Below are positions 40,193 through 41,157 of a stretch of 48,141 nt of DNA, one piece after another. A model generated the notes under the pieces. It was not told the DNA's origin. It ran no database searches and saw nothing but the letters and a program-made list of their open reading frames with translations. Source of the DNA: Escherichia virus Lambda_4B5; sequence record LR595863.1. One strand, written 5' to 3'. The stretch's first letter is position 1. Each line of letters begins with the position of its first letter. The translations under genes were made by a program, and so were the position numbers.

Positions 40193-40633
40193 ATGAAAAA
40201 ACTAACCTTTGAAATTCGATCTCCAGCACATCAGCAAAACGCTATTCACGCAGTACAGCAAATCCTTCCAGACCCAACCAAACCAATCGTAGTAACCATT
40301 CAGGAACGCAACCGCAGCTTAGACCAAAACAGGAAGCTATGGGCCTGCTTAGGTGACGTCTCTCGTCAGGTTGAATGGCATGGTCGCTGGCTGGATGCAG
40401 AAAGCTGGAAGTGTGTGTTTACCGCAGCATTAAAGCAGCAGGATGTTGTTCCTAACCTTGCCGGGAATGGCTTTGTGGTAATAGGCCAGTCAACCAGCAG
40501 GATGCGTGTAGGCGAATTTGCGGAGCTATTAGAGCTTATACAGGCATTCGGTACAGAGCGTGGCGTTAAGTGGTCAGACGAAGCGAGACTGGCTCTGGAG
40601 TGGAAAGCGAGATGGGGAGATCGGGCTGCATGA
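40193..40633 (+). CDS. ninB: NinB (Orf) recombination mediator
   Basis: MKKLTFEIRSPAHQQNAIHAVQQILPDPTKPIV... matches lambda NinB; internal start. Confidence 0.9.
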   Translation: MKKLTFEIRSPAHQQNAIHAVQQILPDPTKPIVVTIQERNRSLDQNRKLWACLGDVSRQVEWHGRWLDAESWKCVFTAALKQQDVVPNLAGNGFVVIGQSTSRMRVGEFAELLELIQAFGTERGVKWSDEARLALEWKARWGDRAA

Positions 40634-41157
40634 CTATCAAATCAAATACGCCAGCACACGACAAGGACTGCTGGCAAACGCCGCTTTGGCTTTTTGATGC
40701 ACTGGATATTGAGTTTGGATTCTGGCTGGATTCGGCAGCGAGCGACAAAAATGCTCTGTGTGCTCACTGGCTAACTGAGGCCGACGACGCGCTCAATTCT
40801 GAGTGGGTAAGCCACGGTGCAATCTGGAATAACCCACCGTACAGCAATATCAGGCCGTGGGTGGAAAAAGCCGCTGAGCAGTGCATACAACAGCGACAGA
40901 CGGTAGTTATGCTTGTGCCAGAGGATATGTCAGTCGGATGGTTCAGCAAGGCTCTGGAGAGTGTCGACGAAGTTCGCATTATCACTGATGGACGGATTAA
41001 TTTTATCGAACCATCGACAGGGCTGGAGAAGAAGGGAAACAGCAAAGGCTCCATGCTGCTGATTTGGCGACCGTTCATCAGTCCTCGACGGATGTTTACT
41101 ACCGTATCCAAAGCGGCATTGATGGCGATCGGGCAGGGCGTCAGGAGGGCGGCATGA
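40630..41157 (+). CDS. DNA N6-adenine methyltransferase (orphan, phage Dam-like)
   Basis: 175-aa product with NPPY catalytic motif ([10 protein letters not shown]); ATGA overlap with ninB. Confidence 0.8.

Follow-up and report, generated by a model that had tools for sequence, protein, structure and literature searches.

What does an orphan adenine methyltransferase lodged among the nin genes of a lambda-like phage recognize, and when in the phage cycle would it act? The question is posed by Escherichia virus Lambda_4B5 (LR595863.1), all 48,141 nucleotides of which were analysed and are called the window below. Between ninB and ninE, on the plus strand at 40630-41157, is an intact open reading frame (ORF) of 175 codons plus stop, in which N68-P69-P70-Y71 (codons 40831-40842, plus strand) form the catalytic motif IV of amino-methyltransferases. 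The initial annotation had taken this 175-residue NPPY protein for an orphan N6-adenine DNA methyltransferase embedded in the nin region and had considered its target motif not predictable; the ORF, its motif and the assignment all bear inspection, while the statement about the target does not. It is highly probable that this is the same enzyme as M.EcoVT2Dam, a GATC adenine methyltransferase that is made as a delayed-early protein and completes the GATC methylation of phage DNA during lytic replication. What the enzyme is biochemically has good support; what the phage gains from it is not established.

An enzyme with a name and a predictable target

The protein is identical at 175 of 175 positions to the product of orf32 of the Shiga-toxin phage VT2-Sakai (NP_050531.1), where the same 528-nt gene is found in the same ninB-orf32-ninE layout. 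In VT2-Sakai orf32 is the sole coding sequence annotated as a methyltransferase, and when the full 60,942 bp were scanned in six frames no other ORF of at least 100 amino acids had a (D/N/S)PP(Y/F/W/H) motif. Since orf32 is the sole methyltransferase candidate there, M.EcoVT2Dam of prophage VT2-Sa is taken to be this protein. Radlinska and Bujnicki reportedly cloned M.EcoVT2Dam and assigned its GATC specificity in 2001. In later papers the enzyme is ‘known to target’ GATC (PMC6602927, citing Radlinska and Bujnicki 2001) and VT-2 is among the phages with demonstrated Dam-like GATC activity (PMC7139368 and PMC7556043, both later papers of Radlinska). T1 Dam, or M.EcoT1Dam, modifies DNA to G(m6A)TC, where m6A is N6-methyladenine (PMC4996451), HP1 Dam appears in PMC7556043 (its ref. 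32) as a Dam methyltransferase that has been cloned, and M.Btr190III, 35% identical to M.EcoT1Dam, was cloned and its product found by SMRT (single-molecule, real-time) sequencing to be G(m6A)TC (PMC4996451). The VT-2, HP1, T1 and M.Btr190III enzymes are all cited as GATC enzymes in PMC6602927, PMC7556043, PMC7139368 and PMC4996451. With an identical enzyme and several family members to judge from, the target can be predicted after all, possibly with relaxed fidelity at high expression: the literature on the identical protein and its relatives gives good support for GATC, the site of host Dam, as the predicted preferred site.

Family membership and conserved residues

The match to PF05869, ‘Dam’ (DNA N-6-adenine-methyltransferase), has an E value of 6e-65 and 218 bits (cut-off 28.1 bits) and spans profile positions 1-167 of 169; that to the equivalog TIGR01712, ‘phage N-6-adenine-methyltransferase’, reaches 266 bits (cut-off 97.05 bits) over all of positions 1-165 of 165. 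By these profile scores the gene is far from a chance ORF. The protein is also assigned to PHROG 111, and its best match in PADLOC is to ‘orphan methyltransferase’, the others being weak matches to Type II methyltransferase models only. A motif scan of the whole window found no other plausible ORF with [DNS]PP[YFWH]. NPPY (68-71), D34, T17 and P18 do not vary among 40 homologues (59-94% identity), and W15 hardly does, pointing to purifying selection on the catalytic apparatus, and on alignment NPPYS, D34, W15, T17 and P18 are common to the HP1, T1 and Stx2a_1447 relatives as well. Full-length profile matches, the catalytic (D/N)PPY motif, the N-terminal W-x-T-P and L-D-x-A signatures and a predicted fold of the type dependent on S-adenosylmethionine (SAM) are all present, and the protein is a lambdoid-phage member, already known, of the small phage ‘Dam’ family PF05869/TIGR01712.

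A second, divergent PF05869 member is encoded in Stx2a_1447 (AP012536.1, 10213-10866); its 217 amino acids are 27% identical to the window protein (tblastn E 7e-5, with 30.8% over the local match). Some Shiga toxin 2 (Stx2) phages have this divergent PF05869 gene with the replication genes on one side and a rusA-like gene on the other, so that the family is found at more than a single place in the early-right operons of lambdoid phages.

What kind of fold would 175 residues make? The AlphaFold model, a predicted rather than a solved structure built from the 40 homologues, has a mean predicted local distance difference test (pLDDT) score of 85.5 and a predicted template-modelling (pTM) score of 0.85, and consists of one alpha/beta domain with strands and helices alternating; confidence dips most at residues 46-48, which belong to the weakest block (41-50), and in block 131-140. 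In a Foldseek search of the PDB the best match was the mRNA cap m6Am (N6,2'-O-dimethyladenosine) methyltransferase PCIF1/CAPAM (6iry; probability 1.00, E 4e-4, template-modelling (TM) score 0.57-0.60), itself a weak match, of 14-16% identity, and far weaker ones followed to Escherichia coli Dam (2ore/2g1p, TM 0.33-0.35), CamA, METTL4 (TM 0.29), KsgA and TrmM. Every one of the top solved matches is a SAM-dependent methyltransferase, of the adenine-N6 type or another, and the model supports a predicted minimal amino-methyltransferase core. By sequence, neither the single protein nor the 40-sequence profile found a solved relative in the PDB, the only matches being chance ones with E > 0.1.

Start, junctions and the cassette

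The gene abuts both neighbours through ATGA junctions. At 40630-40633 its ATG (40630) overlaps the TGA of ninB (40631-40633), and at 41154-41157 the ATG of ninE (41154) overlaps its own TGA (41155-41157). ATG 40630 is the supported start because the alignment with the HP1 homologue begins at the first residue and the profiles at residues 2-4, and the upstream GTG at 40570 is disfavoured on the same grounds. A weak Shine-Dalgarno sequence, GGGGAG, is 10 nt 5' of the methyltransferase ATG, and a good one, AGGAGG, is 5 nt 5' of the ninE ATG, inside the methyltransferase gene. The initial annotation had the gene translationally coupled to ninB and ninE by the overlaps. Both overlaps are there to be read, and from them and the weak GGGGAG coupled translation of ninB, dam and ninE is plausible; ATGA junctions are a general trait of nin regions (PMC8022706). 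Two GATC sites are near these starts, one at 40619-40622, 8 nt 5' of the methyltransferase start and directly after the putative Shine-Dalgarno sequence, the last base of which it shares, the other at 41127-41130, 24 nt 5' of the ninE start; their placement is probably due to chance.

Identity to lambda of 99.4% runs through P, ren, the terminator and ninB, stops exactly at the ninB stop codon (window 40633, lambda 41084), and restarts within ninE at window 41161 (lambda 42097), 4 bases past the methyltransferase stop, at 95% (blastn). The 40634-41160 segment (plus strand) is a mosaic cassette with no lambda homology that replaces lambda 41085-42096, and from the points at which homology breaks and resumes the methyltransferase is a swapped-in cassette that stands where lambda has ninC and ninD. 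The lambda proteins that fill this ninB-ninE slot, NinC (of the PAPS (3'-phosphoadenosine 5'-phosphosulfate)-reductase family) and NinD, are unrelated to the methyltransferase: an alternative cassette, not a homologue. The flanking genes are both on the plus strand: ninB, also known as orf, at 40193-40633 encodes a recombination mediator (PF05772, E 2e-54) and is collinear with lambda NinB (40644-41084, 99.4% identity), and ninE at 41154-41330 (PF05322, E 3e-42) is 95% identical to its lambda counterpart. In the gap between ren and ninB a terminator scan found a strong intrinsic terminator at 40145-40168 (plus strand), a hairpin of 8 pairs, 6 of them G-C, followed by the T-run TTTTATTT, which lies within the stretch 99.4% identical to lambda 39800-41084. 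From its position, which is as in lambda, we take it to be tR2.

By Pfam and the annotation of phage 1H12 the neighbours are O, P, Ren, NinB, NinE, NinX, a 64-amino-acid ORF, RusA (41881-42243), YlcG and Q. Pfam found no restriction endonuclease among them, the right arm of 1H12, identical to that here, has none in its annotation, PADLOC had no match for the neighbours, and the left arm has lambda-type structural genes, as judged by ORF layout only. The methyltransferase is thus an orphan with no restriction endonuclease beside it or elsewhere in the element (the left arm being judged, again, by layout), just as the initial annotation had it for the adjacent genes.

Occurrence and expression

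The gene is anything but rare. The surrounding 1.6 kb is 100% identical in the lambda-like coliphages Lambda_2E9 and 1H12 and in several Lambda_ev isolates, and with the Jouyvirus phage 1H12 and related phages the window shares its whole right arm (23200-48141) at 100% identity. Nearly the same DNA turns up in 430 phage records, under the annotation phage DNA N-6-adenine methyltransferase, and of 5426 complete E. coli genomes 1566 (29%) contain the 528-nt gene, with ninB and ninE flanking it in eight of the eight E. coli matches listed. A gene so common, and annotated in hundreds of phage records, matters little as a discovery. As for its products, the ‘dam’ of Phi24B (clone CM2) is 100% identical to NP_050531.1, the protein was detected in lysogen cultures and the level of the transcript changed significantly on induction (all PMC3342100), and the HK97 homologue was reported to be 99% identical (Table 3 of PMC3342100).

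What the enzyme may do for the phage

The proposed sequence of events, modelled on lambda, would begin with transcription from PR and, with the gene 3' of the terminator at the tR2 position, synthesis only after N antitermination. The terminator upstream argues that this is probably a delayed-early gene, the product of which would methylate replicating phage DNA. Translation within the tightly packed ninB-dam-ninE unit, as suggested by gene position, would yield an enzyme transferring methyl groups from SAM to the N6 of adenine in DNA, preferably at GATC. In lambda virion DNA about 50% of Dam sites are methylated (PMC3299994, with a similar remark in PMC8022706), the incompleteness being ascribed to replication outrunning host Dam (PMC3299994, PMC8022706). 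Because only about half the sites in lambda virion DNA are methylated, the simplest role would be the completion of GATC methylation independently of the host. During lytic replication the enzyme would raise methylation at those of the phage's 140 GATC sites that host Dam leaves incomplete, so that progeny DNA would be fully Dam-modified whatever the host Dam level, and full modification would protect it from GATC-directed methylation-sensitive nucleases, MutH included. MutH cuts GATC only when it is un- or hemi-methylated. The 140 sites in the window are mildly under-represented (observed/expected 0.61 with a Markov model), a figure uninformative on function. Candidate pay-offs are anti-restriction, escape from MutH and control of lysogeny.

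Several points weigh against this account. The GATC specificity is conveyed by three later papers that cite the 2001 characterization, and the 2001 data presumably came from a cloned and overexpressed gene; PMC10810198 warns that the activity of a Dam-like enzyme may mislead when it is overproduced, and M.Btr190III made substantial off-target methylation (PMC4996451). In the model, a single domain of 175 residues with no separate target-recognition domain would leave GATC specificity unexplained. Hosts are normally Dam+, so a selective benefit is presumed; the literature searched yielded no knockout phenotype for a lambdoid phage, nor a published genetic explanation for the retention of another GATC methylase, unrelated to that of the host, by phages that grow on Dam+ bacteria.

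The absence of a recognition domain from the 175-residue model could be turned into a positive argument, that at the levels native to the lytic cycle the enzyme methylates adenines in many contexts and gives broad anti-restriction as Hia5 and M.EcoGII do, GATC being just its best site; prophage-borne non-specific adenine methyltransferases do exist (PMC3299994, PMC5778455). This is nonetheless distinctly unlikely, given that Hia5 and M.EcoGII belong to other families while Pfam finds only PF05869 here (PMC3299994, PMC5778455), that GATC specificity is ascribed to the VT2, HP1 and T1 enzymes alike (PMC6602927, PMC7556043, PMC7139368, PMC4996451), and that off-target activity was seen only under overexpression. 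The fold search, in which PCIF1/CAPAM came ahead of DNA Dam (TM about 0.34), raises the thought that the protein methylates adenine in RNA and was given a DNA annotation by mistake, for which the MT-A70-type ‘Dam-like’ enzyme of the Stx phage PA8 is a precedent (PMC10810198). To this we give hardly any credence: the fold matches are weak, the PA8 enzyme is of a different family (DPPW, MT-A70) and requires a partner subunit (PMC10810198), and the T1, HP1, VT2 and Btr190III enzymes are all reported as methylators of GATC in DNA. Nearly as hard to credit is a suggestion in two forms, that at native lytic levels the enzyme is no simple second Dam. Its substrates might be RNA or the intermediates of replication or recombination, with methylation of duplex GATC partly a read-out of overexpression, a thought that arises because enzymes making m6A in RNA are its neighbours in structure and the protein would be made together with the single-stranded DNA-binding NinB; or its selected role might be the blinding of MutH-dependent mismatch repair, in which case the phage would recombine freely with diverged prophages. 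NinB as an obligatory partner or recognition subunit is unnecessary, HP1 and T1 having the enzyme without NinB and lambda having NinB without the enzyme, and no link to methyltransferases was found in the NinB literature.

Could G(m6A)TC be made, but selected for the control of processes that read GATC methylation and not for anti-restriction? The enzyme might tune or stabilize lysogeny and induction, or render recombination intermediates refractory to MutH so that recombination with diverged prophages is not aborted by mismatch repair. Stable 933W lysogeny requires host Dam (as cited in PMC3342100), the identical Phi24B protein is, as noted, found in lysogen cultures, and the gene is set among recombination genes, with ninB upstream and rusA downstream. 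Against this, its place 3' of the terminator at the tR2 position speaks for expression in the lytic cycle and not in the lysogen, in HP1 and T1 the gene has neither ninB nor rusA as a neighbour, and no direct test of such a role was found in the literature, so that control as the selected role, though it deserves attention, is on balance unlikely. Completion of phage GATC methylation during lytic replication is the reading that we retain.

Other features of the window

A complete IS4 element of 1426 bp occupies 19039-20464, with terminal inverted repeats TAATGCCAGTCAGTTAAG and TAATGCCGATCAGTTAAG and a transposase of 447 amino acids on the minus strand (Nterm_IS4 and DDE_Tnp_1); it ends 31 bp 5' of the side-tail-fibre gene (20496-22523) and probably accounts for the window being some 1.4 kb longer than phage 1H12 (46,703 bp). 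A cluster of three GATC sites within 24 bp at its right end (20431, 20443 and 20454, in 20431-20454) was considered as a Dam-regulated switch and dismissed, the cluster being the IS4 terminal inverted repeat. The b region has as cargo a sitABCD manganese/iron ATP-binding cassette transporter operon (23196-26645, minus strand), as annotated in the identical 1H12. Further cargo, at 43000-45726, lies 3' of Q and 5' of genes that the annotation of the identical 1H12 gives as holin and endolysin, and comprises a Blc lipocalin (43000-43524, minus strand), a YbgA-like DUF1722/2-thiouracil desulfurase protein (43717-44676) and an AraC-type regulator (44986-45726).

Comparison with known enzymes

The product G(m6A)TC and the (D/N)PPY chemistry are those of host Dam and T4 Dam, both of the alpha class (PF02086), but host Dam has a separate DNA-recognition domain and the window protein, as modelled, has none. 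PF02086 gave no match with an E limit of 0.01, no Dam structure of the PDB was matched by sequence, and the fold resemblance is the slight one given above; judged by these searches, the window methyltransferase is unrelated to host or T4 Dam. According to Radlinska's group only the T2 and T4 Dam enzymes are homologous to cellular Dam (PMC7139368).

Lambdoid prophages also have ‘Dam-like’ orphans of another kind, M.EcoGV and M.EcoPA8orf6770P, which can share a prophage with M.EcoVT2Dam (PMC6602927), but these are of the MT-A70 family with DPPW and are encoded elsewhere in the phage genome (gp5 of PA8). The PA8 enzyme with its partner PNB-2 prefers 16S rRNA (PMC10810198). That the window protein is an Stx-phage 16S rRNA methyltransferase of this MT-A70 type was rejected on its motif (NPPY, not DPPW), on Pfam (PF05869 only) and on the poor METTL4 fold match. 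The non-specific families were set aside too, with no corresponding Pfam match and with differences in length and architecture; M.EcoGII is a beta-class enzyme of 349 amino acids with DPPY followed by FxGxG (PMC5778455), and Hia5 is of the alpha class and related to Dam (PMC3299994).

Much closer are the PF05869 enzymes of other phages. HP1 Dam (Haemophilus phage HP1 orf13, 173 amino acids) is 38% identical over 150 residues, of the same length, and has the same W-x-T-P, LD, NPPYS, S-x-x-W and R-x-x-F signature, but HP1 is a P2-like phage in which the gene ends the early operon, after a MazG-like gene and with no nin genes nearby. T1 Dam (M.EcoT1Dam, 237 amino acids; PF05869 E 2e-70) is 33% identical to the window protein and differs from it in an extra N-terminus of 48 residues and an insertion of 14, and in T1, a virulent coliphage, the dam gene is free-standing between terminators. 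With M.EcoVT2Dam, the VT2-Sakai orf32 product, there is no protein difference at all: only the backbone differs, that of a lambda/1H12-like Jouyvirus here and of an Stx podovirus there.
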